Assembly (NCBI GenBank): GCA_041650835.1
Contig: JBAZKL010000002.1
Coordinates: forward strand, 538,435-602,434
Direction of reading: 5' to 3'
Origin: Candidatus Omnitrophota bacterium
GTDB lineage: Bacteria > Omnitrophota > Gorgyraeia > Gygaellales > Profunditerraquicolaceae
Length of the DNA stretch: 64,000 bases
Under the pieces are notes generated by a model that saw only the letters and a program-made list of their open reading frames with translations, made no database searches and was not told where the DNA came from. How positions within the stretch are numbered: the stretch's first letter is position 1; every line of letters begins with the position of its first letter. This document shows, piece after piece, positions 9,725 to 63,540 of this stretch. A program made the translations under genes and the position numbers.

Positions 9725-10291
9725 CTACACCTTTTCAACTTGCCAATATTCCAACTCCACAGGAGTAGACCTGCCGAATATTGAAATATTGACCTTTAAT
9801 CTTCCTTTTTCAGGATGAATTTCTTCTATGCTTCCGTTAAAGTTCATGAACGGGCCTTCTTTAACCCTGACCTGCTCGCCTTTTTCGAAAATGATCCGGG
9901 GGCTCGGTTTTGTCCTGGTCTCTTCGGTACGCTTGAGTATCTCGACAACCTCTTTCTGCGGAAGCGGCATCGGCTTCTTGCCGGAACCGATAAATCCCGT
10001 CACTCCGGGAATTCCCTTTATAAAAGAGTATGTCTTTTCCTCCATCTCCATTTCAACAAGAAGATATCCGGGGAAAAACCTTCTTTGGGATATGCGTTTT
10101 TTCCCGCCGCGAACCTCAGAAACCTGTTCCGTAGGGATAATGATCTTGGTTATCTGGTCCTGAAGGCCATACGCAGGTATGCGTGTTTGCAATATTAATT
10201 TAACCTTATCTTCTGAACCTGTCTGCGTATGCACTACGTACCAATTCTTCACCAGCAAAGCCTCACGATCCATCGTATTACTTAAAAACAA
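9725..10291 (-). CDS. nusG: transcription termination/antitermination factor NusG
   Basis: An NGN domain ([16 protein letters not shown]) followed by a C-terminal KOW domain. The true start may be the ATG at about 10273 (MDREALL...), which would remove the overlap with secE. Confidence 0.9.
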
Positions 10292-10469
10292 TACTTAACA
10301 TTTTTGAAAGAAACAGATCTATCGACCCGATGAAAACAGCCATAAGAGAGGTTACTACAATGACAACAGAAGTAGCTCCGATCAATTCCTGGCGGGTGGA
10401 CCAAGAAACTTTCGTCAATTCCACTTTAACTTCATTTATGAAATTCCTGGTCTGTTTTATAATATTCAT
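10278..10469 (-). CDS. secE: preprotein translocase subunit SecE
   Basis: 63 aa with a single C-terminal TM helix. It lies immediately upstream of nusG, as in the conserved secE-nusG arrangement. Confidence 0.8.
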   Translation of the reverse strand: MNIIKQTRNFINEVKVELTKVSWSTRQELIGATSVVIVVTSLMAVFIGSIDLFLSKMLSIVFK

Positions 10470-10517
10470 AATGAGTCAGTTCCTTACCTTATATCCTTAT
10501 ACCCACACGCTTTTTTA

Positions 10518-10588
10518 CAGGAGCGGCAGGGCTCGAACCTGCAGTCACGGTTTTGGAGACCGTTGGTTTGCCATTAACCGACGCTCCT
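10518..10588 (-). tRNA. trnW: tRNA-Trp (anticodon CCA)
   Basis: The reverse complement folds as a cloverleaf with a 7-bp acceptor stem AGGAGCG/CGCUCCU, the anticodon loop CUCCAAA and T-arm GGTTCGAGCCC. It lies between rpmG and secE as in many bacteria. CCA is not encoded. Coordinates are accurate to about 2 nt. Confidence 0.8.
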
Positions 10589-10630
10589 ATTTCCATGAAC
10601 CAATCGCAAAAGAACGAATACCTCTTCCGC

Positions 10631-10780
10631 TTACTTAATTTCCTTATGCGGAGTATGCTTACGACAATGCTTGCAGAATTTCTTGATCTCCAGCTTATCC
10701 TGATGCTGTTTCTTATTCTTTGTTGTCGTATAATTCCTGTTTTTACAGACAGTACATTCTAACGTGATAATTTCGCGCAT
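10631..10780 (-). CDS. rpmG: 50S ribosomal protein L33
   Basis: 49-aa ORF missing from the ORF track because it is under 60 aa. Manual translation gives [49 protein letters not shown], a typical L33. Confidence 0.8.
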
Positions 10781-10816
10781 GATTTCTTCTTATATTTTCC
10801 GAGTCTTGGATTTTTA

Positions 10817-10889
10817 AGCTGGAGACGGGAATCGAACCCGTGACCCCGTCCTTACCAAGGACGTGCTCTGCCGACTGAGCTACTCCAGC
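10817..10889 (-). tRNA. trnT: tRNA-Thr (anticodon GGU)
   Basis: The reverse complement reads GCTGGAGTAGCTCAGTCGGCAGAGCACGTCCTTGGTAAGGACGGGGTCACGGGTTCGATTCCCGTCTCCAGC. It has a perfect 7-bp acceptor stem and the anticodon GGT. Coordinates are accurate to about 2 nt. Confidence 0.8.
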
Positions 10890-11130
10890 GTCATTTCGTC
10901 GGCACAGCATTTACGATTGAATTGATAGGATAAAAAATCCCCTATCAGAATTTTTCACGATTCCTTATTTGTTTTCCCTGCCTATGTGTAATTATAAAAT
11001 TACTGTAGAGAGGTTATTATAATTACATGGAAAAAAAAGTATACAACAAAATAAATGTTTTGTCAAATACTTTTTTAATTTTTTAATTTCATTAGGAAAG
11101 TATGAACCGAAGTAGATAGTATACTCAAAT

Positions 11131-11767: not shown

Positions 11768-13227
11768 CCGATCTCAAAATCAGTCACGTCTTTCTTTCCT
11801 TCTTTTCGCTTAGTCGTATATTTAGTCTTGACTTCTTTGAAATATTTAGATTTCTCCATGCTATCAACGAACGAAAAAACCGCCGACATGGAATCAGCGG
11901 TCCCTTTTACCGTAAACTTCCCCTGGTCATCAAAGCGGATATCATTTAACGCCAGGTCCAAGGGGCTGATCGTATAAAGCTCCGTCAAAACTTCTAAAGA
12001 ATACCCCCTGCTGAATAAATAATTCTTGATCAGGCTGATCTTAGCTGAATCATTTTCTAATTTCACCGCCTGCTCATGGATAGCGGTGAACTCATGGCCG
12101 ATTTTCTTTAGATAAGCGTTTTTAAAATAAATCTGAGCGCCCATCGTAAAAAGCAGGACAATTAAAAACAACAGGGCCAAAATACCCGTTTTGACCATAT
12201 CCCGGCCGCGGGCTTCGAGAACTTTTTTTAACTTGATCTCTTCCGGGACCAGATCGACTTTGAGCTCATCGCAAAGCAGCGCCGCGGCAATCCCGCTCAG
12301 GAATGACAGCCGCTTGGCTTGCGTGGCGACAACAGAGGCGGCGACCTGGATCTGCAGACCTTTCAAATAAGGAGCTTCTTTTACCGGTATCTGCAAAGAA
12401 TCACCCAGCATTTTTTCTAACTCCGGCACTTCAGCCGTCGCGCCGGTAATGATGACCGATTGAGGCGGTTTCTCGATATTCTCAGCCTGATACGCCTCAA
12501 GTGATTTCTTAGCTTCCTCCAGGAACTTAACCTGATACTTCTCTTTTTCAGACGCCAACTGCTGCGCGCCTATTGCAAGAGCGCGGACAAAGATCACTTT
12601 ATGTTTGAACATAACGAAGAAATCACTTATTGTTTCATCGATATTGATAATGCTCGTCGGATATTCCGCGGTATCGCTTTTAGTGCTCTTGAGGATGAAC
12701 CTGCCCACTGCTTCAGGCGCAAAGTACACACGCTCAAAAGGAAATCCCGCCTTTGAGGCTATTTCAAAATGGCGCTTGACGACATTGCGGGCAACCATAA
12801 CAAGCAGCACTTTTGTGTAATTACGCTTATACGTGCCGATATCAATATAATCCACAATGATCTCTTCCCGGGAATACGGCGTGTGCCGGCCGGCCTGAAG
12901 GCTGATGATCTCTTTTATTTCCTGAGGGTTCGTTGAAGGGACTTCAATATTCTTTGTGATCAATAACTGTGAAGGCAACACATCGAACAAGCGCAACGGC
13001 TTAACATTCAAAGCGGTAAGAGCGGTATTGAGCAACTTGGCAATATCGGCGTCATTGGCCCCTGTCACCATATGGTTGGCCAGGGTCACGACTTCCTTCT
13101 TGTTCGGCGGCACAATTTTAATATAAGACAGTTTAAGATTATTGCCGCTGAGATCAAGCGTTACGATACCCGGCGAAACATTCAAACGGGTGAGAAAATT
13201 CAGTGATTGAAGACCTATTTTTTTCAT
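11749..13227 (-). CDS. GspL-like protein (cytoplasmic PilM-like actin-fold domain, TM helix, PilN-like periplasmic domain)
   Basis: 492 aa. The N-terminal roughly 330 aa resemble PilM/GspL cytoplasmic domains. A TM helix follows (GILALLFLIVLLFTMGAQIYF), then a periplasmic domain of about 130 aa. The gene is in the gspL slot between the gspK-like and gspM-like genes. Confidence 0.65.
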   Translation of the reverse strand: MKKIGLQSLNFLTRLNVSPGIVTLDLSGNNLKLSYIKIVPPNKKEVVTLANHMVTGANDADIAKLLNTALTALNVKPLRLFDVLPSQLLITKNIEVPSTNPQEIKEIISLQAGRHTPYSREEIIVDYIDIGTYKRNYTKVLLVMVARNVVKRHFEIASKAGFPFERVYFAPEAVGRFILKSTKSDTAEYPTSIINIDETISDFFVMFKHKVIFVRALAIGAQQLASEKEKYQVKFLEEAKKSLEAYQAENIEKPPQSVIITGATAEVPELEKMLGDSLQIPVKEAPYLKGLQIQVAASVVATQAKRLSFLSGIAAALLCDELKVDLVPEEIKLKKVLEARGRDMVKTGILALLFLIVLLFTMGAQIYFKNAYLKKIGHEFTAIHEQAVKLENDSAKISLIKNYLFSRGYSLEVLTELYTISPLDLALNDIRFDDQGKFTVKGTADSMSAVFSFVDSMEKSKYFKEVKTKYTTKRKEGKKDVTDFEIGCLLER

Positions 13228-15624: not shown

Positions 15625-15693
15625 ACGCTCCTCCTTTAAGTAATACCCTTTTCACAGTAATACATAGCGGTGTTAAATTAATAAAACAAGTTA

Positions 15694-16156
15694 AGTCTAA
15701 AGGATAAAGGATAAATAACAAAGGAAGGTTTAAGGTTCAAGGTTTAATTTTAAAATTTAACCTTTATTCTTTGGATTTCCTTTGTTCTTTAGACTTTAAC
15801 CTTTATCATTAACGTTAAATCACCCAACTCCTTGACCTAACAACTAAACTAACATCTTAACCTTAACCACAACCTATAACTATGGACCATCGACTACCCG
15901 TGTCTTGTGACTTTATTATTGGTAGTTAGGTATATGACTAGTTAAGTCTAAAGGATAAATAACAAAGGAAGGTTTAAGGTTCAAGGTTTAATTTTAAAAT
16001 TTAACCTTTATTCTTTGGATTTCCTTTGTTCTTTAGACTTTAACCTTTATCATTAACGTTAAATTACCCAACTCCTTGACCTAACAACCAAACTAACATC
16101 TTAACCTTAACCACAACCTATAACTATGAACCATGGATCGAGGACCATCGACTACG
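15694..16156. repeat. two tandem copies (period about 251 bp) of an imperfect-palindrome intergenic element
   Basis: 15694–15896 and 15945–16156 are more than 90% identical. Each contains a roughly 100-bp inverted repeat (GTCTAAAGG...AACAAAGGAAGG...AAGGTTTAATTTTAAAATTTAACCTT...CCTTTGTT...CTTTAGAC). A tail follows, ending in CTATGGACCATCGACTA. Confidence 0.8.
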
Positions 16157-21498: not shown

Positions 21499-23646
21499 TT
21501 ATTTACTTTCTTGTTCTATATACTTATCTAAGCGGACTCTCTGGGCGCCGGTCATATCAAGAAAGCAAATTGCGACATTATAAACTTTTTCAGTTTCAGT
21601 TTCCTGGCTGCGGACAACCTTAGCTAAGCATTCAATGGGGCTATCATTGTCCGGCAATTCTATCGTTAACTCTAAATACGCCCGGGGAGGTATCATTTCT
21701 ATCGAAGTAAACGTCAATCCCCCGGCAGAAATATTAGACGTAACGCTCAACTGTTCGACCGTATACCCCTGATTAATTAATTCTTCCTGTGATTTAAAGA
21801 TCTTATACCGCAGGTTAACCCGGCTGTTCAAACGGCTAAACACCCGTTTATCGGCATCGGAGGGTTTAGACATTTCTCTGCGCAAAGAATCCCCCCCATA
21901 AGCATCCTGCAACCCTTCCTGCGGCTGGAAATATTCCTCGGCAGAAGTGACATTCATAACTTCTTCGGGTGTCGTCAAACCCAGGATGGTCTTTTGCCAG
22001 CCATCCTGGCGTAACGTTCGCATGCCTCGCGAAACAGCGAATTTCTTGATCTGTCCCGCTGAAGACTTATTCAAGATAAGGTCTTTGACCGTATCATCGA
22101 TCAATAAGATCTCGTAAATGGCCGTCCTTCCCAGGAAACCGGTAAAATTACAGTTCGCGCATCCTCTGCCGCGGAATACCCGCACTTCATCCTTTGATTT
22201 TAATGCTAAATCCCGGATAATGGTTTCACTTAATTCTTCAGGAATATCCATTTGCTCATACTTACAATCAGGGCAGATCAGGCGTATTAAACGCTGCGCA
22301 ATAAAGGCTTCGACGCTTGAAGCGACCAGATAAGGCTCCAAGCCGATATCCACTAAACGGGTAATACCGCTGGCAGCGTCATTGGTATGCAGCGTCGAAA
22401 ATACCAGATGGCCGGTAAGCGCGACACGGATGGCGATCTCAGCTGTCTCCAGGTCCCTGACCTCTCCCACCATGATCACATCGGGATCGTGGCGTAAAAT
22501 ACTCCGCAAGCCCCGGGCAAAATCCAACCCTATCTCGGACATGACCTGTATCTGAGTGACTCCTGACATCTCATACTCGATCGGGTCTTCTATAGTAATG
22601 ATCTTGCGTTCCCGCGTATTGATCCTGCTTAAACTGGCATATAACGAAGTGGTCTTCCCGCTCCCTGTCGGGCCGGTCACAAAAATAATACCGTGCGGTT
22701 TACGGATCAAACCTTCAAATATATTCAGGTCGCGCTTTGACAGACCCAATTTCTCAAGGCTGAACAACATCTGAGTAGGCAAGATACGCACGACCACGCT
22801 CTCCCCGAAAGGCGTAGGTATCGTCGATATCCTCAAGTCTAAAACCTGTTCCTGGACTTTAACCACTGCCCTGCCGTCCTGGGGCATACGGCGTTCAACG
22901 ATATTAAGGTTCGACATGATCTTAATACGCGAGATGATCGCTGTGATAAAACCTTTTATTTCCGGGCCGACATTCGCGTCATAAAGCAAGCCGTCAATAC
23001 GGTAACGAAGCACCACCCCGTCCCGATATGGCTCAATATGGATATCGGTGGCCCGTTTACGCCATCCTTCAAGTATGATCTGATTGACTAATTTGATGAT
23101 CGAGGCGTCTTCGGCTAATTTCGCGATATCAACGACTTTTTCGTTGGAAGGTTCCTGAGGAGAGGATTCATCTTTGGAAATCTGAGAAACGATCCTGTCC
23201 AGGGTTTCCGCGGCCAGACCGTAATATTCTTTTAACGCGCTGACAATATCCGAGGACAACGCAAGGGCAGTCTCGATCTCGAAACCCAGCTGCATACTTA
23301 TCTCATCCTGGATCTTAATGTCGAGCGGCATTGAAACGGCTATGGTCAAACAACGGTCTTTCAAATCAAGCGGCATGAATTTATAATACGAGGCGATCTT
23401 CACCGGTACCGCGGCGATCACGGCCTTATCGATCAAACGGCCTTTAAAATCAATAAGGCGCAGCTGCAGGTTTTCCGAGAGGATCTGTAAAATCGTTTTC
23501 TCGGGGACCGCGGCATGCTTGAGCAGGACATTCCAGAGAGGAAGAGACATACCTTCGGCTTCTTTGATCAGAGGCTCTAAAGATTCTCTCGAGGCGATCT
23601 TACGGACGATCAACGCTTCAAAAAGTATCGTATCAAGTTTAGTCAT
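21499..23646 (-). CDS. gspE: GspE/PilB-family secretion ATPase with C-terminal PilZ domain
   Basis: 715 aa with a T2SSE_N-like N-terminus, Walker A GPTGSGKTT and the tetracysteine cluster CPDC...CANC. A C-terminal extension of about 150 aa carries the PilZ signatures RLNSR and NISAGG. Confidence 0.85.
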   Translation of the reverse strand: MTKLDTILFEALIVRKIASRESLEPLIKEAEGMSLPLWNVLLKHAAVPEKTILQILSENLQLRLIDFKGRLIDKAVIAAVPVKIASYYKFMPLDLKDRCLTIAVSMPLDIKIQDEISMQLGFEIETALALSSDIVSALKEYYGLAAETLDRIVSQISKDESSPQEPSNEKVVDIAKLAEDASIIKLVNQIILEGWRKRATDIHIEPYRDGVVLRYRIDGLLYDANVGPEIKGFITAIISRIKIMSNLNIVERRMPQDGRAVVKVQEQVLDLRISTIPTPFGESVVVRILPTQMLFSLEKLGLSKRDLNIFEGLIRKPHGIIFVTGPTGSGKTTSLYASLSRINTRERKIITIEDPIEYEMSGVTQIQVMSEIGLDFARGLRSILRHDPDVIMVGEVRDLETAEIAIRVALTGHLVFSTLHTNDAASGITRLVDIGLEPYLVASSVEAFIAQRLIRLICPDCKYEQMDIPEELSETIIRDLALKSKDEVRVFRGRGCANCNFTGFLGRTAIYEILLIDDTVKDLILNKSSAGQIKKFAVSRGMRTLRQDGWQKTILGLTTPEEVMNVTSAEEYFQPQEGLQDAYGGDSLRREMSKPSDADKRVFSRLNSRVNLRYKIFKSQEELINQGYTVEQLSVTSNISAGGLTFTSIEMIPPRAYLELTIELPDNDSPIECLAKVVRSQETETEKVYNVAICFLDMTGAQRVRLDKYIEQESK

Positions 23647-23688: not shown

Positions 23689-24174
23689 TTACTGCTGCGG
23701 TTTATCTTTTCTCAAGAGGCGCTGAATACTCTGGCTGATGTGCTGCCGGTAATTCTTGATCACTTCCTGCAGGTCCTCTTCATTCGTCAACACTAAGTTC
23801 ACCTTGCGGGGGCGCGCTTCCTCTTCTACCTTACTGATAGCAACGGCATTAAGCGGATTAATGATCGCGACCGTAATTGAATCCTCATCCCCGTAGAGCG
23901 GAAAGCATTTATGGTCAAGGATCAGCGACGAGGAGAATTTACGCGCCAATTCCATATCAATATATTGCGTCTTTAAATTAGCGACCGGGATCTGGAATTG
24001 AACGGAGAGAGCCTCCATCAGGTTGTGGTCGTTGATCAACCCTTTATTGATCAAGATCGTGCCCAAAAATTTATCGCTGAGCTTCTGTTCAACTAACGCG
24101 TCATGCAACTGAGCTTCCGTGATCCACCCCTTTTCTACGAGTATTTCACCTATTCTTTTAGGCATTTTTTCCAT
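23689..24174 (-). CDS. standalone GspE N-terminal (T2SSE_N-like) domain protein
   Basis: 161 aa resembling the N1 domain of GspE and MshE ATPases (GWITEAQLHDALVEQK...). It lies 12 nt downstream of the atpD stop. Confidence 0.55.
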   Translation of the reverse strand: MEKMPKRIGEILVEKGWITEAQLHDALVEQKLSDKFLGTILINKGLINDHNLMEALSVQFQIPVANLKTQYIDMELARKFSSSLILDHKCFPLYGDEDSITVAIINPLNAVAISKVEEEARPRKVNLVLTNEEDLQEVIKNYRQHISQSIQRLLRKDKPQQ

Positions 24175-24186
24175 GGCAATCTCCTG

Positions 24187-25578
24187 TTATACTGTTCCAA
24201 TCATATATAAATCACCTTCCGGCTTGCGGTCGAGGTGCCCGGACAGAATTTTTTCACAGCCTTCAACCGTCTGCGCTATGGTGACAAACTCTCCCTTTTT
24301 ACCCGTATACGCTTCGGCGACAAAGAACGGTTGCGTGAGGAAATATTGCAGCTTACGCGCCCGTTCATAGATGATACGGTCGCCGGCAGAAAGCTCGTCA
24401 ATACCGATGACCATGACGATACGCCTGAGCTCTTCGTAACGCTGCAGCATACGGATGACGTCCTGAGAGACCTGGTAATGGCGCTTACCGACGATATCAG
24501 GGTCAAGATTCGCGCAGCTAGACATAAGCGGATCGATCGCCGGATACAAACCTAACTGGATCCTTTGCCGGGAAAGGACCATGATAGAATCCAGGAAGCT
24601 GAAGATCGTCACAACCGCCGGGTCGGTCAAATCGTCGGCGGGGATATAAACCGCTTCTACCGAAGTAATAGAACTTCCCGTTTCATGGGAAGACTTGATC
24701 CTCTCGTGGAACTCACTCGCCTCGGAGATCAGGGTAGGCTGATACCCTGTTTCAGAAGGAAGCCTGCCCAGCAAACTTGAAATTTCCGCCCCTGCCTGGA
24801 GGAAACGAAAGATATTATCCACGAACAACAAAACATCCTGGTGCTTACGCTGGATCGATTCTGCCAGGGTAGCCCCGCTAAAAGCCACGCCAAAACGGGC
24901 CCCCGGGGGCTCATTCATCTGGCCGAATATCAAGACGGTCTTCGATAAAATATTCCTGCGCTCCAATTCATAATACAGCTCATTTCCCTCACGCATACGC
25001 TCACCTGCGCCCACGAAAACGCAGGCACCGCTGTGTTTGCGGACAATATTATGGATGATCTCAAGGGTCAGGATACTTTTTCCCAACGCCGCACCTCCCA
25101 GGATCCCGTTCTTAGAACCTTTCACGAGCGGAAAAAGCAGGTCTATGATCTTAATACCTGTCTCTAAAACTTCGAATTTCTCGGCTTTTTCTTTGCTCGA
25201 AAAAGACTGTGCTGCCCGTTGAGGCCTGATCGGCAGCCGCTCACCGGGAGCGATTTCACCTTTCTGGTCGATCGGGTCACCCCAAATATTAATGATCCTG
25301 CCGTAAATGCTATCTCCCGCGGGGATCTGTATCGGGGTTCCGGTAGGGATAACGACACTATTACGTTGCAGGTTAAAGGTGGAATTAATAGCAATACACC
25401 GGGCAATGTTACCGGCGACATGTTCAGCGACCTCTAAGACTACCCTTTTACCGTCAACCGTCTGCGTGTTGATATTATCAAATATCGCGGGGATATCCTC
25501 TTCCCGCTCAAATTTGACATCAACGACCGGCCCCTGTACTGAGATTACACGACCTGGTTTGAGATGAGTATTGTCCAT
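24187..25578 (-). CDS. atpD: F-type ATPase beta subunit
   Basis: 463 aa with the beta-barrel N-domain and the blocks GERMREGNELY, MNEPPGAR and DELS. The P-loop reads GGAALGKS instead of the usual GGAGVGKT. Confidence 0.9.
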   Translation of the reverse strand: MDNTHLKPGRVISVQGPVVDVKFEREEDIPAIFDNINTQTVDGKRVVLEVAEHVAGNIARCIAINSTFNLQRNSVVIPTGTPIQIPAGDSIYGRIINIWGDPIDQKGEIAPGERLPIRPQRAAQSFSSKEKAEKFEVLETGIKIIDLLFPLVKGSKNGILGGAALGKSILTLEIIHNIVRKHSGACVFVGAGERMREGNELYYELERRNILSKTVLIFGQMNEPPGARFGVAFSGATLAESIQRKHQDVLLFVDNIFRFLQAGAEISSLLGRLPSETGYQPTLISEASEFHERIKSSHETGSSITSVEAVYIPADDLTDPAVVTIFSFLDSIMVLSRQRIQLGLYPAIDPLMSSCANLDPDIVGKRHYQVSQDVIRMLQRYEELRRIVMVIGIDELSAGDRIIYERARKLQYFLTQPFFVAEAYTGKKGEFVTIAQTVEGCEKILSGHLDRKPEGDLYMIGTV

Positions 25579-25693
25579 AGTCTTAATTAACCGTTATGTT
25601 ACACCCCGCCTTTTTGGAGTGGCGGAGTACGCCGCTTTCTGCCCAGAAAGGGCGCACCCAGCATACCTATAAGCTGGGGTGCTTGCGGCACCT

Positions 25694-26542
25694 CTATTTA
25701 AATGCCAACCGCGCCGCGAATAACTCCCGCATATTCTTATCGATCAATTCATGGCGCTGACGGAAATATTGTATTTTTAATTCCTTATTCAACTGCTCGA
25801 TCTTTGTCTTACTGGTCTCTAAATGGCTATAGCGCGCTGAAAGTTCAGCTAAACGCGATATGCCGAAGATCTGGAAGAATTTCTGGCCCAGGAATAAATA
25901 CATCCAATATTCCAGCAAGCCGTCAAGCGGAGATTCAACAATTAAATCCTTCACTCCCCCTGAAGCCGTTTTTCTCTGGAACTGATCGGCTTTAGAAAAA
26001 GGGAAAAGCTGCAAAACCTTGACCTGCTGGGCAACGATCGAAAGGGAATAGGGATACACGACCTTCAGTTCTCCCAATTTACCGCTTTGCTCCTCATTTA
26101 AAACATAATCCCTCAACTCGAGGGCCTGTTCCAGCCTGGTCTCGTCTTTTACTCCCTTAAAAACAACATAGGGAAGGTCCGTTTCAGAGGCGTAAATCTT
26201 CCCCTTTTCTCCGACGATAAGAAGCTTGGAATTGTTTTTCTCCGCTTCTTTGATCGCCTGGGTCATCACATTCATATTCAAACCGCCCAAGAGGCCCGCG
26301 TCAGAAGTAAGCGCGATCACTCCCGGCTGGCGGCTGCTCGATTCCAGCAAGTGGTGTTTAATGCCGCCTGCCTGCAGCAGCTCAAAGATACTTCCCAGAT
26401 GGCTGAACACTGAATCAAAGGTCTTGAGTTTACGTTCAAGCACCCGGTATTGAGCTATGGCGATCTCTTTTAAAACCTCAACGAGGCTATAGAGGTTGAG
26501 GTTAAAATCCATATCTTTCTTGATCTGAGAAAGTAATTTCAT
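25694..26542 (-). CDS. atpG: F-type ATPase gamma subunit
   Basis: 282 aa with gamma-like N- and C-terminal helices (...ELIDKNMRELFAARLAFK). It sits between the alpha and beta genes. Confidence 0.75.
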   Translation of the reverse strand: MKLLSQIKKDMDFNLNLYSLVEVLKEIAIAQYRVLERKLKTFDSVFSHLGSIFELLQAGGIKHHLLESSSRQPGVIALTSDAGLLGGLNMNVMTQAIKEAEKNNSKLLIVGEKGKIYASETDLPYVVFKGVKDETRLEQALELRDYVLNEEQSGKLGELKVVYPYSLSIVAQQVKVLQLFPFSKADQFQRKTASGGVKDLIVESPLDGLLEYWMYLFLGQKFFQIFGISRLAELSARYSHLETSKTKIEQLNKELKIQYFRQRHELIDKNMRELFAARLAFK

Positions 26543-26545
26543 ACG

Positions 26546-28027
26546 TTACACAACCGCGAAATAATGGTTCATTGCTTCGTATAACATTTCTATACTGGCA
26601 TCATTGATGATCATCGTCGTACGGATCTCTTTAAAAAGATTCGGGAACTCTTTTTCCACCAGTCCGACAAATTCGTTCTTAAACTTCTGGATATCGGCAG
26701 GGGATAAAGTATCCAGCACCCCCATGCTTAAAGCGAATAAGAACATGACTTCCGACTCCATCTCGATCGGCTTATTCTTATCCTGGATCAAAAGCTGGGT
26801 GATCGCCTGGCCCCGCTTCATACGGTCTTCGGCTTCCTTGGAAAGGCCGGTCGTGCGCAGCTGCGTCATCTGCAGCAATTCCTGATACTGGATATATTCA
26901 AGTCTCAACTGGCCGCTCAACGCTTTCATTGCCGGCCACTGCGCTTTATTGCCGATACGGGAAACCGAAAGGCCGAAATCGATCGCCGGACGAACGCCTT
27001 TGTTAAAAAGCTGAGTGCTGAAGTAGATCTGCCCGTCAGTCATAGAGATCAAATTACTGGAAATATATCCCGTAACATCACCCTGCAATATCTCAACGAT
27101 CGGCAAAAACGTCATTGAACCGCCGCCGAGCTCCGGCTTTAAGTATCCGGCGCGTTCCATCATCTGGGAATGGATATAAAAAATGTCTCCCGGGTACGCT
27201 TCTCTTCCCGGGGCGCGCTCCAGTAAAAGCGAGATCTGACGGTATACCCAGGCATGCTTCGTCAGGTCATCGTGGATCAAAAGGACGTCTTTACCTTTTT
27301 TCATGAAATATTCGCCTAACATGCACGCGGTATAGGGAGCTAAATACTGCTCGCCCATAGAAACAGAAGCGACAGCGCTCACCACAATAGTATACGGCAT
27401 TACTTCTTTTTCATTAAAAAGGTTTAAAAGCTTAAGAAGGCTGGAATTAGTCTTTCCGATACAACAATAAATACAAATAACATCCTGTTTCTTCTGATTG
27501 ATGATCGCGTCAATAGCGACAGTCGTCTTACCCGTAAGACGGTCTCCGATCAAAAGCTGCCGCTGGCCTTTGGCGATCGGGATAACCGCGTCCAAGAGCA
27601 ATGTCCCGGTTTCCAGTGTTTCTTTAACGGGGGCGCGGTCCATAACACCGGGAGCATCGGTAAAAAGAGGATAGTACGCCGACGGTTCAATAGGGCCTTC
27701 ATTATCAACAGGCTCGCACAAGCTATTGACGATCCTGCCGATAAATTTATCCCCTACCGGCAAATGCAAGAACTCCCCCTTACTTAATACTTTCCCGCCG
27801 ATATGCAAAGACCCCTTAACATCAATTACTAATACCTGGACCTCTGCTTCATTAAAACCCAAAACCATGCCCCGCCCGCCCTGTTCAAACTCCACGATCT
27901 GCCCGTTAATGCAGGAAGGAAGGCCTTTTACCCGCACCACGCATTCACGCACCGATACGATCACACCTATTTCGCGCGCTTCAAAATTCGCCTCAGCATG
28001 ATTTTCATGCATACCATCCACCTTCAA
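26546..28027 (-). CDS. atpA: F-type ATPase alpha subunit
   Basis: 493 aa with the alpha P-loop GDRLTGKTTVAIDAIINQK and conserved alpha C-terminal blocks. Confidence 0.92.
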   Translation of the reverse strand: MKVDGMHENHAEANFEAREIGVIVSVRECVVRVKGLPSCINGQIVEFEQGGRGMVLGFNEAEVQVLVIDVKGSLHIGGKVLSKGEFLHLPVGDKFIGRIVNSLCEPVDNEGPIEPSAYYPLFTDAPGVMDRAPVKETLETGTLLLDAVIPIAKGQRQLLIGDRLTGKTTVAIDAIINQKKQDVICIYCCIGKTNSSLLKLLNLFNEKEVMPYTIVVSAVASVSMGEQYLAPYTACMLGEYFMKKGKDVLLIHDDLTKHAWVYRQISLLLERAPGREAYPGDIFYIHSQMMERAGYLKPELGGGSMTFLPIVEILQGDVTGYISSNLISMTDGQIYFSTQLFNKGVRPAIDFGLSVSRIGNKAQWPAMKALSGQLRLEYIQYQELLQMTQLRTTGLSKEAEDRMKRGQAITQLLIQDKNKPIEMESEVMFLFALSMGVLDTLSPADIQKFKNEFVGLVEKEFPNLFKEIRTTMIINDASIEMLYEAMNHYFAVV

Positions 28028-28030
28028 TTC

Positions 28031-28768
28031 CTATTGCGCTTTTGATAATTGATGCGCTTTTACCGCTTCCTGGATCTTAAAGCGCAGGCTCCCGTCAAGC
28101 ACCAAGCTGCCGATACTGACTACCCAGCCGGCAATAATATTAGGGTCTGTAGATTCTTTTAACGTGATCGGGAAACCGACTTTTTCATTGATCTTACCCG
28201 ACAAAGCCGTTCGCTGCGCGTCGGTAAGGAGGAACGCCGTTACCACCCCTGCTTCCTGTATGCCCTCAGGAATATGCAACCGGTCCAATTGCGCGAAGTT
28301 ACCCGCGATCAATTCATCGATCCAGCGTTCATGGATCATGGTGCGGATATTTTCAGGGATTACTTCCTGCAACAATTGCGCTGCCCGATGAATCCCCTTA
28401 TCTTCTATACGCTGTTCGATCTCAGCGATCAAAGCATTACGGGCACGATCAGCCTGAAGCATCATTTCATCAGCTTTTACCTGGGCCTCTTTAATGATCT
28501 TTTCTTTCTCCTCCTGCATTTCCTTTAATAAACGCTGCTTCTGCTGTTCGGCGTCTTTCATTGCAAGTTCTTTAATTTCCTGGGCTTCACGCTTAATATC
28601 GTCATATTGCTTTTTTATATCCTGTTCTTTCTTGGCATATTCAGCGGCCATCTGGTCCAGATGAGCGGTTGCCGCGCCGACGTCACGGTTAAAGATCTTG
28701 TTCAAGGAAACCACTAAAACAATGAAAACAATAATAATGAGGACTATGAAAGGGATCAGTATAAGCAT
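28031..28768 (-). CDS. atpFH: F-type ATPase b–delta fusion subunit
   Basis: An N-terminal TM helix and charged coiled coil (AEYAKKEQDIKKQYDDIKREAQEIKE...) resemble subunit b. The C-terminus is OSCP/delta-like (...IIAGWVVSIGSLVLDGSLRFKIQE). The called ORF extends to 28891 from a TTG codon and overlaps atpE. The internal ATG at about 28768 (MLILIPFIV...) is the more plausible start. Confidence 0.65.
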   Translation of the reverse strand: MLILIPFIVLIIIVFIVLVVSLNKIFNRDVGAATAHLDQMAAEYAKKEQDIKKQYDDIKREAQEIKELAMKDAEQQKQRLLKEMQEEKEKIIKEAQVKADEMMLQADRARNALIAEIEQRIEDKGIHRAAQLLQEVIPENIRTMIHERWIDELIAGNFAQLDRLHIPEGIQEAGVVTAFLLTDAQRTALSGKINEKVGFPITLKESTDPNIIAGWVVSIGSLVLDGSLRFKIQEAVKAHQLSKAQ

Positions 28769-28835
28769 TTCTTTAAACTCCTTTATTACCGGAGGACACT
28801 GGCGGTATGAATAATACCGGCAAACTCCGTAACAC

Positions 28836-29048
28836 TTAACTGAATAACTGGAAAGCGACAAACAGGGCGATGATCGCCGCCCCTTCGGCAAATGCGGTCA
28901 GCATGATCATGACGATAAAGATCTTCGGCGCGGCCGACGGGTTCCTTCCTAACGCGGCGATACTGGCTTTTCCGCAGGAGGCAAAGACCCAACAGGGGCC
29001 CGCGATACAAAACGTAAAGATCAAAAGCAACGCTAAATTTCTATCCAT
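28836..29048 (-). CDS. atpE: F-type ATPase c subunit
   Basis: 70 aa forming a two-helix hairpin. It has a GK...GRNP loop and a helix-2 carboxylate in the context LTAFAEGAAI. Confidence 0.7.
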   Translation of the reverse strand: MDRNLALLLIFTFCIAGPCWVFASCGKASIAALGRNPSAAPKIFIVMIMLTAFAEGAAIIALFVAFQLFS

Positions 29049-29049
29049 G

Positions 29050-29277
29050 TTATTCTTCCATGATGATCGTGGTCTTATTCGATTGAACGCCTACCATGCC
29101 CCGACGGATAGCGAATACATTCTGGTCCACGATAACGTTTCCTTTAACCAAACGGCTCACCAAAGGCTTGTGATAATCTAAAACTTCAAAAACCCCCTGT
29201 TCTCCGGGAAGCATAACACTATGAGCCTTACCTTCGAAGACTATTTTATCGAGCGTAACAACGATAACATCCTGCAT
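29050..29277 (-). CDS. atpC: F-type ATPase epsilon subunit, N-terminal beta-sandwich only
   Basis: 75 aa (MQDVIVVTLDKIVFEGKAHSVMLPGEQGVFEVLDYHKPLV...). The sequence matches the epsilon N-domain. The C-terminal helical hairpin is absent. Confidence 0.7.
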   Translation of the reverse strand: MQDVIVVTLDKIVFEGKAHSVMLPGEQGVFEVLDYHKPLVSRLVKGNVIVDQNVFAIRRGMVGVQSNKTTIIMEE

Positions 29278-29345
29278 GCGTTTATATTATAGCATTAAAG
29301 AGGTTACACACTAATAATTATACAATCGCTTAATAATTATACCAT
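29278..29345 (-). promoter_or_regulatory. candidate promoter of the ATPase–T2SS operon (extended −10 TGcTATAAT 7–15 nt upstream of the atpC ATG; possible leaderless mRNA)
   Basis: The minus-sense sequence reads ...GTGTGTAACCTCTTTAATGCTATAATATAAACGC-ATG. No Shine-Dalgarno sequence is present. Two further TATAAT hexamers lie upstream. Confidence 0.3.
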
Positions 29346-30132
29346 TGTTTTAGGTTATTGAAAATGTTATTTTGTCGCAGGCACAAGACACAAGTCGCAG
29401 GTCTCAGGTCGCTTGCTATCCGGTGAACGGGTCCTGTCTTGGACTATTTTCTCGCGGGGACGTTTGCCCCGCCCCGGCGTGGCGGGGCTGCACTCAGGTC
29501 GGCTGCGTCGCTCTGCCCGACTTCGTTTATCGAGGGGCATCCGTGCCCGCTCCTTGCCTTTATGCCCCGCTCGAAAACAGTCCAAGCCACCCGTTCACTA
29601 ATAAAAACCCTGGTCAGACACAAGTCATAAAATAATCTATAGTCGATGGTCAATAGAGAAGGAAAATCAGAGTAACCGGGAATCGGGTCGCAGGTCTCAG
29701 GTCGCAAGACACAAGTACACAAGACACAGGTAATCCGGAACTATATGATCAGGTAATCAGGAAATTGAAAAAGAAAGATAATCGAGTAAGAATGCCCCTG
29801 TTGAGATTGTGAGCGAATGGAGCTTTTAGCCGGAGGAGCTTGAGCATTTGAGGGAATGCCAGTGGAGCGCGTAAGCGCGACAACACTGGCAAGGCGAGGT
29901 TGTCTGAGCAGTATTTGCCAGAGCAAATACTGCGAGTTCCGCAGCCTCCGAAAATGCGAAAGATCTCCGGCGTTACCCGGATTAGCCTTTTCTAAAACAA
30001 AAGGCTAATCCGGGTAAAAAAGCGACTTGAGCGAACAATCCAACAGGGGCATTCTTGGTAAGCTCAAAATAACAGGTCGCATGGCACAATTACACAAGAC
30101 GCAAGTCACAACGAAGATAACAGCCAACAGTT

Positions 30133-30182
30133 AAATAAAAAACGCGGGACCACTCCGGGAAATTACCGGAACGGCCCCGCGC
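30133..30182 (-). terminator. intrinsic terminator of the giant gene
   Basis: On the minus strand a GC hairpin (GCGCGGGGCCGTTCCGGTAATTTCCCGGAGTGGTCCCGCG) is followed by UUUUUUAUUU. It begins about 15 nt after the stop codon at 30197. Confidence 0.65.
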
Positions 30183-30196
30183 TTATTACTTTAGAT

Positions 30197-54775: not shown

Positions 54776-54779
54776 TTTT

Positions 54780-55247
54780 TCACCTCTCTTTTACTCCCTT
54801 TAACGGGAGAGAGTCATTAGTAGCTGCGCCGGCAGCAGGCATGATCGCTTCTTCCTGGGACGTCAAGTCCCGAGGAGCAGCTTTTAAGAACATAACGGCC
54901 TGCGCGACAAAAGTCCTTTTTTTCCTGCCATTATCCAGAATTTCGGTTATTTCATCATATTTAACGGTGACCGTATCACCGAATTTTATATCGCTCAATT
55001 TATTTTTATGCTCTACCTTGATCTTTTTATCTATCGTAAAAGCCATTTCATAAGCTCCTTTAGACGGATCATCCGCGCCATAGGTAACTGCCATAAAATT
55101 AGAGGATAAGCCGCTGATAACTCCCGTGACCTCTTTACGGACGGTTTCTTTACTACCCGTCTTCTCTTGGGCCGACGCCGGAACAGCTATACACACACTT
55201 AACAACAAAAATAAGGCGGTTACTATCCTGGTCATTTTTGTAAACAT
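54780..55247 (-). CDS. small secreted protein of unknown function (signal peptide)
   Basis: 155 aa beginning with a signal peptide, MFTKMTRIVTALFLLLSVCIAVPASA. Its TGA stop lies inside the Shine-Dalgarno sequence of the giant gene, 5 nt before that gene's ATG. Confidence 0.6.
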   Translation of the reverse strand: MFTKMTRIVTALFLLLSVCIAVPASAQEKTGSKETVRKEVTGVISGLSSNFMAVTYGADDPSKGAYEMAFTIDKKIKVEHKNKLSDIKFGDTVTVKYDEITEILDNGRKKRTFVAQAVMFLKAAPRDLTSQEEAIMPAAGAATNDSLPLKGVKER

Positions 55248-55248
55248 G

Positions 55249-56442
55249 TTATTCTCTCCTCCTGTACCCGGTACTTATAAATGAAAAATCCTGCGGCGCA
55301 AGACCTTTCTGCCGCAGGCTCAATATGCCGCTCATACGGTTCTCCTGCAATTCGCCGTGCCAGGAGGCAGTCGACTCGCCTGAAGACTGCATCGTCTCCC
55401 AGATCAGCTTGCCATTACTCTCGACCGTGACCGAATAATTAGAACTGACGAAACCCGACGAATTAAGCTTCGCCGAGACAAATTTACCGTTCTTAAAATT
55501 AAGCGTGTCCACCGCTTCGTTGCCTCCGGAAAGCGGGATCAGTTTCACATCCCATTCCTGCTTGTTCCATTCGATCGCCTGGACCGCGGGGATAGGCGCG
55601 TTCTGGATAGCAGGCGGCGTGCCGTCTTTATTGTTCACGACATAAAAATAAACCACTCCCGCCCCTACCATAAGCACTACCGCCAAGCCGCCGGCGGTAA
55701 CTAAAAATTTATATTTTTTGTTGCCGGTTTCTTTCTTTTCCTGAACTGATTTCTTCTGAAAGTTCTGGATCTGCGCTTTGACCTGCTTAATGAAATCATC
55801 TGTTCCCAGGATCCCGCCGCGGTGCAAATTCTTATGGATAAGATCACCGACTTCCTGCGTCATACCGCTGACAAACTCCGCGTAATCTTTATTGTCTATC
55901 AAACCCATAACTTCAGCGATCTCGTCTTTCAAGTTCATTCCCTTTGCCTGCCGGTCAGGGTCATTGTGGCACAGATACATTGGATAACTGCTATGAAGGG
56001 AGTCCTGCAGCTCAACCACCAGGTTCAATTTTTTAGGGTTCAAATGGATATAAGCGGTCATGCGCGCCAAATTATTTTCTTTCTCCACGATCGCGGCCTT
56101 AAACCGTTCGCGGAATAAATGCCCTTTTCGGTTATATCTGCCGTTAAAATATTTCGTATACGAATTATTCACGTTATGCATGAACTCGGATATCTGCGGG
56201 GTATTGGAAGGGTCATTTTCAAGGGATTCATCCTGCTGCAGCATTTCGACTAAAAGGTGAAGATGGTTCGGCATAAGTGAATACGCGAATATTTTGATAT
56301 TATATTGATCTTTATATTTTTTCAGTAAGTCCAGAAACATAGCGTAATCCCCTTCATCCTGAAAAATATTTTGACTGCTTTCAGCGCGGCATGTCACATA
56401 GTATAACGCGCCTTTAATGAATATTCTGGGTAATCTGGGCAT
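55249..56442 (-). CDS. membrane-anchored HUH (IS200/RayT-like Y1-transposase fold) domain protein with periplasmic C-terminal domain
   Basis: 397 aa. The N-terminal roughly 150 aa match the Transposase_17 / REP-associated Y1 pattern (YYVTCRAES...IFAYSLMPNHLHLLVE ... AYIHLNPKKLNLV). A single TM helix follows (KYKFLVTAGGLAVVLMVGAGVVYFYVV), then a beta-rich domain of about 130 aa. The gene is separated by 1 nt from the downstream gene. Confidence 0.6.
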   Translation of the reverse strand: MPRLPRIFIKGALYYVTCRAESSQNIFQDEGDYAMFLDLLKKYKDQYNIKIFAYSLMPNHLHLLVEMLQQDESLENDPSNTPQISEFMHNVNNSYTKYFNGRYNRKGHLFRERFKAAIVEKENNLARMTAYIHLNPKKLNLVVELQDSLHSSYPMYLCHNDPDRQAKGMNLKDEIAEVMGLIDNKDYAEFVSGMTQEVGDLIHKNLHRGGILGTDDFIKQVKAQIQNFQKKSVQEKKETGNKKYKFLVTAGGLAVVLMVGAGVVYFYVVNNKDGTPPAIQNAPIPAVQAIEWNKQEWDVKLIPLSGGNEAVDTLNFKNGKFVSAKLNSSGFVSSNYSVTVESNGKLIWETMQSSGESTASWHGELQENRMSGILSLRQKGLAPQDFSFISTGYRRRE

Positions 56443-56450
56443 ATTTTCCG

Positions 56451-56502
56451 GCTTGTGCCTGGCACTTTCGTGCTTTTTTTACGCTTGTGCCTGGCACTTT
56501 CG
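56451..56502. promoter_or_regulatory. two 20-bp direct repeats, each with an 11-bp palindrome GTGCCnGGCAC, immediately upstream of the HUH-gene start
   Basis: GCTTGTGCCTGGCACTTTCG occurs at 56451–56470 and 56483–56502, a 32-bp spacing. The repeats lie 9–60 nt upstream of the ATG at 56442. The arrangement is operator-like. Confidence 0.45.
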
Positions 56503-56550: not shown

Positions 56551-56959
56551 TTACCAGGAACTTCGGCAGTTTGCCTTTCCGCAAAGAATCATTTGCGGAT
56601 GCATAACTTTGCGCCCCCAGGTTACCCTGTCCGTTAAAAAAAACAACGGATCTACCAAAACATCGGTAGAAGTTTGCCTTTTCGTTTCCTCTTCCAACTT
56701 GTCTATCATAAGTATAGCATATAGCAAGTAACTTGTCAAAAAAAGTACTACTCCAAAATACAATAGACTTATGCACTCATTATTCAATTGCTATTATTAT
56801 GGATCTTATGTCGATAAAAGTCAAGAGAAATCGTTACAACCTGTGATTTAAGAGCAGGTTCCCACAATTCCTTGATCCGGTTGATCTTGAAATAATTCCT
56901 GATTTAGGCCATATACTCATCCGGAACAATATCACTAACCGTCAAAAAATTATTTTTTT

Positions 56960-63369: not shown

Positions 63370-63540
63370 TGATAAAGACTAAAGGTTAAATAACAAAGGA
63401 AGGTAAAAGGATAAAGGTCTAATTTTAAAATTTAACCTTAACTCCGTCTATCTGCTTTTAACCAAACAACCTTACCCAAATACCAAACTAATATCTTAAC
63501 CCTATCCCTAACCTAATTACTAAACGCTACACGCTAAACG
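63370..63540. repeat. diverged copy of the 15.7/15.95-kb palindromic intergenic element
   Basis: ACTAAAGG..AACAAAGGAAGG..TAATTTTAAAATTTAACCTTA...AACTAATATCTTAACC shares words in the same order with the tandem elements at 15694–16156. Confidence 0.55.

Follow-up and report, generated by a model that had tools for sequence, protein, structure and literature searches.

Gene organisation of the locus

In this study, we analysed a 64,000-nucleotide (nt) stretch of the genome of a Candidatus Omnitrophota bacterium (assembly GCA_041650835.1, contig JBAZKL010000002.1, positions 538,435 to 602,434), which is called the window throughout, and focused on a cassette of two genes that directly precedes a giant gene. 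The first gene encodes a protein of 397 amino acids (aa) in which a RayT-like HUH domain is joined to a transmembrane (TM) helix and a periplasmic beta-barrel, the second encodes a small secreted protein with an oligonucleotide/oligosaccharide-binding (OB)-like fold, and the giant gene encodes 8192 aa. Read along the gene strand, the elements are arranged in the order promoter, cyclic di-GMP (c-di-GMP)-I riboswitch, terminator, hairpins, HUH-TM-barrel gene, gene of the secreted OB-fold protein and giant gene. The features, of which the regulatory elements and protein domains are predictions, are the following:

56711-56739, minus strand: sigma-70-like promoter, TTGACA-17-TATACT with a TG extension, 11/12 matches (a consensus match only)
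56562-56688, minus strand: c-di-GMP-I (GEMM-I) riboswitch aptamer, Rfam RF01051
56507-56552, minus strand: intrinsic terminator (expression platform), a perfect 11-bp stem AAAATCTCAGG / CCTGAGATTTT followed by T9
56487-56500, minus strand: distal hairpin AAAGTGCCAGGCAC, resembling a repetitive extragenic palindrome (REP), with 5' AAA, stem GTGC/GCAC and loop CAG
56455-56468, minus strand: proximal copy of the hairpin, ending 12 nt before the ATG
55249-56442, minus strand: HUH-TM-barrel gene, 397 aa, with a RayT-like HUH/Y1 domain, a conserved helical linker, a TM helix and a periplasmic beta-barrel
55963-56442, minus strand: RayT-like HUH/Y1 domain (aa 1-160)
55636-55707, minus strand: TM helix (aa 246-269)
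55252-55578, minus strand: periplasmic 8-stranded beta-barrel (aa 289-397; AlphaFold2 model)
54780-55247, minus strand: gene of the secreted 155-aa protein, in which a signal peptide is followed by an OB-like beta-barrel of five strands (aa 33-122) and by a disordered tail with SLPLKGVK at its end
30197-54775, minus strand: giant gene, 8192 aa

The three open reading frames (ORFs) were found again at the coordinates, and with the dense packing, given in a preliminary description that was made from the sequence alone. Of the two intergenic gaps reported there, that of 1 nt (55248) was found again, while the second one, given as 5 nt, measures 4 nt (54776-54779) in the sequence. The TGA of the 155-aa gene falls within GAGAGGTGAAAAAATG, the ribosome-binding region of the giant gene, and hence lies inside or adjoining its Shine-Dalgarno sequence, as had also been noted.

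Proteins of the cassette and their relatives

The Pfam family Y1_Tnp (PF01797) matched residues 14-133 of the 397-aa protein with 45.6 bits (gathering score 23, E 9e-12) and was the only Pfam domain above its gathering score. The best NCBIfam match was the REP-associated tyrosine transposase family REP_Tyr_transpos (NF047646; residues 5-147, E 6e-20), which with 71.6 bits missed its equivalog cutoff of 80 bits. The HLH motif (H60, H62) and the AYIHLNP block (Y131, N135) are invariant in 25 close homologues. Residues 246-269 form the sole hydrophobic segment of the protein, and the K-rich flank on its N-terminal side predicts that the N-terminus lies inside, in the cytoplasm. The last 109 residues (289-397) were modelled by AlphaFold2 as an antiparallel eight-stranded beta-barrel with a mean predicted local distance difference test (pLDDT) score of 93.9. 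These results agree with the preliminary description, in which a Y1-fold domain with an HLH motif and a YIHLNP block, to be checked by a profile search for Y1/IS200, was said to be fused to a TM helix and to a periplasmic beta-rich domain; only the size of the latter, given as roughly 130 aa, has to be lowered to about 110 aa.

A search of the PDB with the full-length family profile gave no match at E <= 0.01, and with the N-terminal domain alone the sole match, a weak one, was 4ER8 (E 0.12). In a Foldseek search of the barrel against the PDB nothing significant was found, and the top entries were the lipocalin-like DUF4251/BVU_3222 and the NHBA/HpuA barrels, with a template-modelling score of about 0.5. 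The full-length architecture is shared by more than 100 homologues with 40-60% identity, nearly all of which are from Omnitrophota and which are named "transposase" or "REP element-mobilizing transposase RayT" in the databases; a protein identical to that of the window is recorded on a Candidatus Omnitrophota contig of 676 kb. For comparison across the phylum, one genome per species was scanned, which resulted in 80 loci with 10-kb flanks. The HUH domain proved to be the best-conserved part of the protein, as the N-terminal hidden Markov model (HMM) matched all 80 loci with E values from 1e-46 to 1e-74.

The 155-aa protein carries a predicted Sec-type signal peptide, in line with its earlier description as a small secreted protein, and the core of its OB-like barrel has a pLDDT above 90. 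A Foldseek search against the PDB revealed only marginal similarity (E 3e-3) to OB folds of the type found in single-stranded-DNA-binding proteins, which was not taken as evidence of periplasmic DNA binding; because the protein is exported, we read it only as an OB-fold partner. Its family ends in a conserved (S/P)LKG(V/L)K after a disordered acidic linker (54780-54810 and homologues), which could be a docking or processing signal. The giant protein begins with an N-terminal signal or anchor and a conserved N-terminal domain of approximately 350 aa and ends with a C-terminal TM anchor; its middle part is built of beta-propeller-like repeats, tens of immunoglobulin-like repeats of about 85 aa and a coiled coil. 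Pfam returned nothing useful on the ends of the giant protein.

The barrel domain is not restricted to the HUH-TM proteins. A profile search of 1.84 billion representatives found it in 1267 proteins, most of which have 150-260 aa and consist of a signal peptide, the barrel and a charged tail. The gene of one such standalone protein adjoins a secretin gene near a Kre9_KNH-repeat giant of 6457 aa, another lies directly upstream of an HUH-TM cassette, and standalone paralogues upstream of the cassette were present in many of the 80 loci. This association with a secretin gene, giants and cassettes suggests that the barrel represents the envelope side of giant-protein biology. In the first of these cases (L200, 385-11986), the barrel protein P0179 (249 aa) is encoded between the secretin gene and genes of proteins with Big and CarboxypepD_reg domains, 5 kb from the giant gene.

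The leader and its predicted c-di-GMP riboswitch

The cassette is preceded by a leader in which a c-di-GMP-I riboswitch, absent from the preliminary description and newly found here, was identified. The Rfam model RF01051 scored 36.0 bits on the window (gathering score 35, E 3.2e-5); in 14 of 20 short loci of relatives, the corresponding position reached 53-66 bits. The low score of the window is due to a 41-nt insertion in the first hairpin of the aptamer, which forms two extra small hairpins and was also found in L001 and L002 (9756-9882). A covariance model that was built from the RF01051 matches of the relatives and run on the 80 loci detected the aptamer on the gene strand in approximately 70 of them, mostly at 100-250 nt ahead of the HUH start; these include loci of a short protein subfamily that is described below and of catalytically dead lineages.

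The candidate promoter lies just upstream of the aptamer start (56688), a position that supports the consensus match. Downstream of the aptamer, a hairpin with a run of at least six T was found in 50 of the 53 loci that were scanned, and 21 of these 50 terminators contain GUUUGCC, the complement of the GGCAAAC of the aptamer, which hints at an OFF switch as the possible direction of regulation. Taken together, the aptamer, promoter and terminator place the operon under predicted control by c-di-GMP through the riboswitch.

Leader hairpins and their relation to REPs

Between the terminator and the start codon, the window holds two exact copies of GCTTGTGCCTGGCACTTTCG on the plus strand, each of which reads as the hairpin listed above on the gene strand. 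Both copies are in direct orientation upstream of the HUH gene, and no further copy was found in the 64 kb of the window, neither downstream of the HUH gene nor at the far end of the operon. Related loci with a total length of 1.23 Mb contain the 11-mer core of the hairpin 82 times as opposed to about 0.6 expected copies, nearly always on the gene strand and 20-200 nt before the ATG of the HUH gene. A leader has one or two copies, usually two at a distance of 20-32 nt from each other; this distance is 32 nt in L001/L002 and in the window itself. The positions that are conserved most are the loop CAG and the 5' AAA, with the short protein subfamily having a CAC loop. Substitutions mostly retain G-U/G-T pairing on the sense strand, and one compensatory GTAC/GTAC variant was found. 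As the copies are palindromic, pairing between them can also give a single stem-loop (-20.6 kcal/mol, z -5.6).

The sequence of the motif led only to unrelated eukaryotic matches in the literature. In metagenomes, a scan for the motif pair yielded at least 119 contigs with a guanine-cytosine (GC) content of 34-73%. Among the matches listed, an HUH-TM gene follows 24 of the 133 motif sites that have room for it, and the other sites are tandem or dispersed intergenic arrays typical of REPs, with a tandem copy number of 2-6 in other genomes. Three contigs (L143, L198 and L169) carry genes for soluble RayT-like proteins with an intact HUH motif and tyrosine, which score 121-148 bits against the N-terminal HMM of the Omnitrophota family, and the motif occurs both upstream and downstream of each of these genes. 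The arrangement of a REPtron, with inverted downstream copies, is seen in L198 and L169, and L143 has pairs on either side. Because the motif both forms REP-like arrays and flanks soluble RayT genes, the hairpin is the predicted cognate REP of this RayT lineage. The Escherichia coli protein TnpA_REP binds the REP hairpin together with a 5' tetranucleotide that is read base-specifically, and cleaves and rejoins single-stranded DNA (ssDNA) beside REPs (PMC3479197); the conserved 5' AAA of the hairpins described here is analogous to this tetranucleotide.

Two other readings of the motif were rejected. A sigma-54 promoter would lie on the opposite strand (TGGCAC) with a GG-to-GC spacing one base short and no conserved -12 TTGC, and would fire away from the operon. 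A duplex operator with helical phasing was considered in view of the clustered copy spacings (20-23, 30-32, 42-44, 53 and 63-64 nt); these clusters track clades, and elsewhere the same motif is spaced by 19, 24, 29, 36 and 39 nt.

It is worth mentioning that the motif has further forms on other contigs. In five metagenomic contigs with a GC content of 64-67% (L117, 5564-5670; L101, L163, L096 and L193), 2-6 tandem copies of GAAAGTGCCAGGCAC with a 19-nt period are paired with inverted companion hairpins GGTGCGTCGCACTTTC, a composite element that resembles REPs or bacterial interspersed mosaic elements in unrelated high-GC genomes. Contig L140 (9.9 kb, GC 46%) contains 24 GTGCCAGGCAC cores, each at the apex of a longer palindrome, GTCGCCATTGGTGCCAGGCACCAATGGCGAC; they are spread over the surroundings of a large autotransporter-like gene region and apparently also occur within it.

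The preliminary description had also pointed to palindromic elements, similar to REPs or miniature inverted-repeat transposable elements, elsewhere in the window and had noted that RayT-type proteins normally act on such elements. Such palindromes exist at 15690-15813, 15944-16047 and 63414-63439; they are long and imperfect (about 100-120 nt), with short repeats of the AAGGTT/AAGGTC type around a TTTTAAAA centre, and are probably the elements that were meant. They are unrelated to the GTGCCAGGCAC hairpin, and it is the two leader copies, not these palindromes, that are the putative cognate targets. Repeats of the same AAGGTT/AAGGTC type lie between the two hairpins of one related locus (L038, 9890-9945).

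Conservation of the cassette and of the catalytic residues

The cassette is conserved throughout the phylum Omnitrophota. Across the 80 loci, the HUH-TM orthologues share 27-91% protein identity and have the same neighbours on both sides. Giant ORFs were counted in those 57 loci for which 4 kb or more of sequence was available downstream; in 54 of them an ORF of at least 1000 aa starts within 3.5 kb downstream, and 51 of these ORFs run off the fetched flank, which answers positively the earlier question of whether the gene also neighbours giant genes in related genomes. A member of the small-protein family lies directly downstream of the HUH gene in 33 of the 80 loci according to tblastn and in 49 according to the HMM, and a homologue of the first approximately 350 residues of the giant protein follows the cassette in 46. 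The gene junctions of the relatives range from -26 to +25 nt, with 4-nt overlaps being common. Some metagenome-assembled genomes have two cassettes (L007 and L010; L048 and L054). A short subfamily of about 330 aa is devoid of the barrel, yet its genes are still followed by a giant ORF, with up to three small genes in between; several of its loci have no recognisable hairpin.

Additional RayT-like genes occur on some contigs. In L064 (9100-13300), two HUH paralogues lie in tandem (9983-10915 and 12263-13204), with a separate c-di-GMP-I riboswitch for each of them (9789 and 12055), and four copies of the hairpin core flank the first HUH gene on the opposite strand; the first HUH histidine is replaced. 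A soluble RayT-like gene lies directly upstream of a riboswitch leader in L133 (2648-3349), on a contig that also has an HUH-TM cassette, and a soluble RayT-like gene with a tail resembling DnaA_C or a helix-turn-helix (HTH) shares its contig with an HUH-TM cassette in L149 (841-1743).

The HUH histidines and/or the tyrosine are substituted in 34 of the 80 syntenic orthologues, for example, by RLE, RIH or QLD in place of the HUH motif and by F or H in place of the tyrosine. The segments MPRLPRI and YTKYFNGRY.RKGHLF.RF are nearly invariant, also where the catalytic residues have been lost, and many loci without these residues still have the hairpin. Catalysis is, to judge by these substitutions, not the conserved function of the family, its residues being dispensable in many orthologues. 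In the clade of the window, H60, H62, Y131 and N135 are invariant. Among the long-form loci, which contain the barrel, two hairpins were found in 32 of the 33 with an intact triad, and two or more in 10 of the 24 with a lost triad, a correlation that is confounded by phylogeny. The view that the gene is a domesticated HUH domain and not a free transposase, first put forward from its architecture, is strengthened by the fixed position in 80 genomes, by the TM/barrel fusion and by the loss of catalytic residues in 34 of the 80 loci.

Interpretation and alternative explanations

We propose, with a probability of about 50%, that the cassette is an exapted REPtron, i.e., that its first protein is a membrane-tethered hairpin-binding protein that acts on the leader of its own operon and not a transposase. 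According to this proposal, an ancestral REP-associated tyrosine transposase was captured, together with its cognate AAA-GTGC-CAG-GCAC hairpins, at the head of a giant-protein operon. The cytoplasmic HUH domain would have kept its sequence-specific binding to these hairpins in single-stranded form, be it on the leader of the mRNA or on the non-template strand of the DNA, and would act in cis on its own operon while being held at the membrane by the TM helix. The barrel, the OB-fold protein and the N-terminal domain of the giant protein may couple hairpin binding to the state of export or assembly of the giant protein. The net result would be a bitopic feedback regulator or tether, similar to ToxR/ToxS, on top of the riboswitch control by c-di-GMP. 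The clade of the window has kept all catalytic residues and two hairpins, and nicking and rejoining that is specific to the hairpins may persist there.

Several points weigh against this proposal. We infer the link between the HUH domain and the hairpins from their adjacency and from the homology to REPtrons, and the co-transcription of the cassette with the giant gene from the gene spacing only. A formal shuffle test for covariation in the 4-bp hairpin was uninformative (89.4% of cells paired vs 89.0% after shuffling), so the substitution pattern is suggestive only, and its C-to-T bias could stem from deamination of the non-template strand and not from structure. The long stem-loop formed by the two copies is protein-independent and could itself act on RNA stability or translation. 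Moreover, the short subfamily precedes giants without the barrel and in some loci without the hairpin, which means that neither is strictly required, and the retention of every catalytic residue in the clade of the window argues that binding alone is not the whole story there.

An alternative that we hold to be unlikely is that the protein is an envelope factor with a vestigial HUH domain. The barrel and the OB-fold protein would then chaperone, pilot or anchor the N-terminal domain of the giant protein near a machinery similar to the type II secretion system (T2SS) or the type IV pilus (T4P), and the hairpins would be an independent RNA element of the riboswitch leader that serves stability or translation. 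Barrel-only paralogues with a signal peptide are common and lie beside a secretin gene and giants or beside cassettes, the N-terminal domain of the giant co-occurs with the cassette, T2SS/T4P genes lie in the same window, the catalytic residues are lost in many lineages, and the hairpin pair folds by itself. This is difficult to reconcile, however, with a HUH domain that is the best-conserved part of the protein, whose non-catalytic motifs are nearly invariant and which is retained in the short subfamily without the barrel. Furthermore, the hairpin is conserved beyond its structure, in the sequence of the loop and the 5' AAA, and is identical to the REP of related soluble RayT proteins.

Quite unlikely, in our estimation, is that the protein is still an enzyme in the clades with an intact HUH motif and tyrosine, including that of the window, where it would be a membrane-bound, site-specific ssDNA nickase or strand-transferase acting on the two hairpins. 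Through gain or loss of the 32-nt repeat unit, it might operate a heritable switch in the leader. Alternatively, it might cut the non-template strand in the wake of the RNA polymerase and seal it again, and so tether the locus or relieve supercoiling during transcription of a 25-kb membrane-directed gene. The invariance of H60, H62, Y131 and N135 in the clade of the window and in 25 aligned homologues, the association of the intact triad with two hairpins, the variable tandem copy number of the same motif in other genomes and the ssDNA cleavage and rejoining known from TnpA_REP (PMC3479197) are all in its favour. Set against these are the 34 of 80 syntenic orthologues that lack catalytic residues at the same position, often with the hairpin kept, and the phylogenetic confounding of the triad/two-hairpin association. 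Copy-number variants were also absent among the window, a database contig identical to it and L001/L002, each of which has two copies at a distance of 32 nt, and there is no second set of hairpins at the far end of the operon within the 64 kb.

A rather improbable variant of hairpin capture is that the protein serves as an operon-specific factor for very long genes, which would capture the leader hairpins on the non-template DNA or the nascent RNA and thus fix the locus or its mRNA to the inner membrane beside the export machinery. Transcription, translation and secretion of a protein of 8,000 aa, and elsewhere of far longer ones, might in this manner become processive and spatially coupled, and the cassette would be an RfaH/ops-like or "transertion" device made of a domesticated transposase and the REP that belongs to it; in clades whose active site is intact, it may even act as a site-specific swivel or a covalent tether.

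Finally, an ordinary selfish REPtron or IS200-like transposase inserted by chance upstream of the giant gene, which would make the "transposase" annotation correct and to which the Pfam Y1_Tnp match, the database names and the counting of transposases among giant-gene flanks in a 2026 preprint could be credited, is very improbable and effectively refuted by synteny, as the gene keeps the same neighbours on both sides in 80 species-level genomes with protein identities of 27-91%, encodes a TM helix and a periplasmic domain, has lost catalytic residues in 34 of the 80 loci without decay of the gene, sits between a riboswitch and its regulated genes, and has no adjacent tnpB-like ORF and no terminal hairpins on its far side, while the motif is not dispersed in the 1.23 Mb of related DNA.

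Genomic surroundings

On the 3' side of the giant gene, the window contains ATP synthase genes, then a T2SS/T4P-like cluster that includes a PilB-type ATPase with a PilZ domain, and then nusG, ribosomal protein genes and rpoB; these surroundings indicate that the locus is a part of the core chromosome and not an island. The F-type ATP synthase genes (24187-28891) are directly downstream of the giant gene on the same strand, and the unannotated stretch from 28892 to 30196 has no entry of 120 aa or more in the ORF list. Their delta (OSCP) subunit has 286 aa with a long N-terminal extension and is possibly a b-delta fusion. The PilB/GspE-type ATPase (21499-23646) combines two c-di-GMP-binding modules, MshEN at its N-terminus and PilZ at its C-terminus, and a small separate MshEN protein is encoded beside it (23689-24174). 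These modules form a second c-di-GMP-sensing layer near the giant operon with its predicted riboswitch.

Relation to previous work and significance

A 2023 preprint on giant genes described conserved secretion-system and PilZ neighbours, and the words "transposase", "IS200" and "RayT" are absent from it, while the 2026 preprint counts transposases among the flanks of giant genes as mobile DNA. In the searchable literature, the surveys of giant genes mention secretion genes, PilZ and "transposase" flanks and neither the cassette nor a c-di-GMP riboswitch, and no paper was found that links c-di-GMP riboswitches with Omnitrophota or RayT with membranes. Within these limits, the cassette appears to be undescribed. 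Domesticated RayT proteins are already known as a kind, and the genomic role of the one presented here is unusually well defined.

The cellular role of domesticated RayT/HUH proteins is still open; here, a RayT lineage and its REP hold a fixed genomic job throughout a phylum, and the membrane anchor, the periplasmic domain and a defined cis target in a riboswitch leader make for a concrete, testable use of a tamed HUH domain and its REP. How the giant genes of Omnitrophota are controlled and expressed has not been worked out, and the cassette offers an entry point through c-di-GMP together with three conserved partner components. Additionally, the "transposase" label of the HUH-TM gene is a systematic mis-annotation that makes the giant-gene loci look rich in mobile elements.

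Comparison with known systems

The closest known systems are the E. coli TnpA_REP/RayT protein (PDB 4ER8) and REPtrons, with which the Omnitrophota protein shares the HUH/Y1 fold family, the HUH motif, Y-x3-N and the serine motif Y(P)xSSY. The E. coli gene also lies beside small cognate palindromes with a conserved 5' flank, which is GTAG there and AAA here, and is likewise single-copy and "domesticated". The sequence similarity is barely detectable (E 0.12 for 4ER8), whereas the soluble, motif-flanked relatives reach 121-148 bits. The E. coli protein is soluble with 165 aa, whereas the Omnitrophota protein has 397 aa with a TM helix and a periplasmic barrel, and its catalytic residues have been lost in many orthologues. 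Compared with the REPs of RayT, the Omnitrophota hairpins are tiny (a 4-bp stem), are confined to leaders in the related loci and have both copies upstream in direct orientation. In the window, the hairpins are upstream of the gene only, and the soluble relatives on L143, L198 and L169 have the same motif on both sides. Mobile IS200/IS605 elements are bounded by subterminal hairpins at the left and right ends, occur at multiple or variable sites and often carry tnpB; here, the hairpins are on one side, there are two copies in 64 kb, the neighbours are fixed in 80 genomes, and no tnpB-like ORF is adjacent.

Class 2 of the TnpA_Y1 proteins, whose members have C-terminal extensions, such as the Bac_DnaA_C/HTH of subclass 2.1 (PMC6006769), provides a precedent for the architecture: a RayT-like core and a ...GxILGSEEF... 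linker are shared, and a module is added. The soluble relative with a DnaA_C-like tail on L169 is even flanked by the same hairpin motif. In the Omnitrophota protein, the added module is the TM helix with the periplasmic beta-barrel; the TnpA_Y1 classification of Quentin et al. (2018, PMC6006769) mentions no transmembrane members and gives median lengths of 148-325 aa for the subclasses.

As regards giant surface proteins, the LapA/LapD/LapG system and the c-di-GMP riboswitches that precede adhesin and pilus genes resemble this locus in that a very large surface protein is under c-di-GMP control, which is predicted here. Further shared features are the co-encoded inner-membrane protein, which has a domain in the periplasm, a small periplasmic partner and PilZ-domain proteins that are encoded nearby. 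Here, c-di-GMP is predicted to be sensed by an RNA aptamer and not by a degenerate GGDEF-EAL receptor, and no protease domain was found.

A leader element of very long operons is also known from RfaH/ops, where a dedicated protein recognises a short element that folds into a small hairpin on the non-template strand. The similarity is functional and consists of a short hairpin element in the leader of a very long operon and a dedicated protein; there is no homology to NusG/RfaH, and the factor described here is membrane-anchored and encoded by the operon itself. Antitermination by the HUH-TM protein would be an analogy with RfaH/ops only.

A functional analogy for the proposed feedback regulator is provided by ToxR/ToxS. 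There is no homology between the two systems, as the HUH fold takes the place of an OmpR-type winged helix, and a Pfam search of the 397-aa protein, in which only Y1_Tnp exceeded its gathering score, found no winged helix of the OmpR/PhoB type. The presumed target is a single-stranded hairpin in a transcribed leader and not a duplex operator upstream of the promoter. Both systems, however, combine a cytoplasmic nucleic-acid-binding domain, which is presumed here, with a single TM helix and a periplasmic domain, both encode a small periplasmic partner immediately downstream, and both are placed to link the status of the envelope to gene expression.

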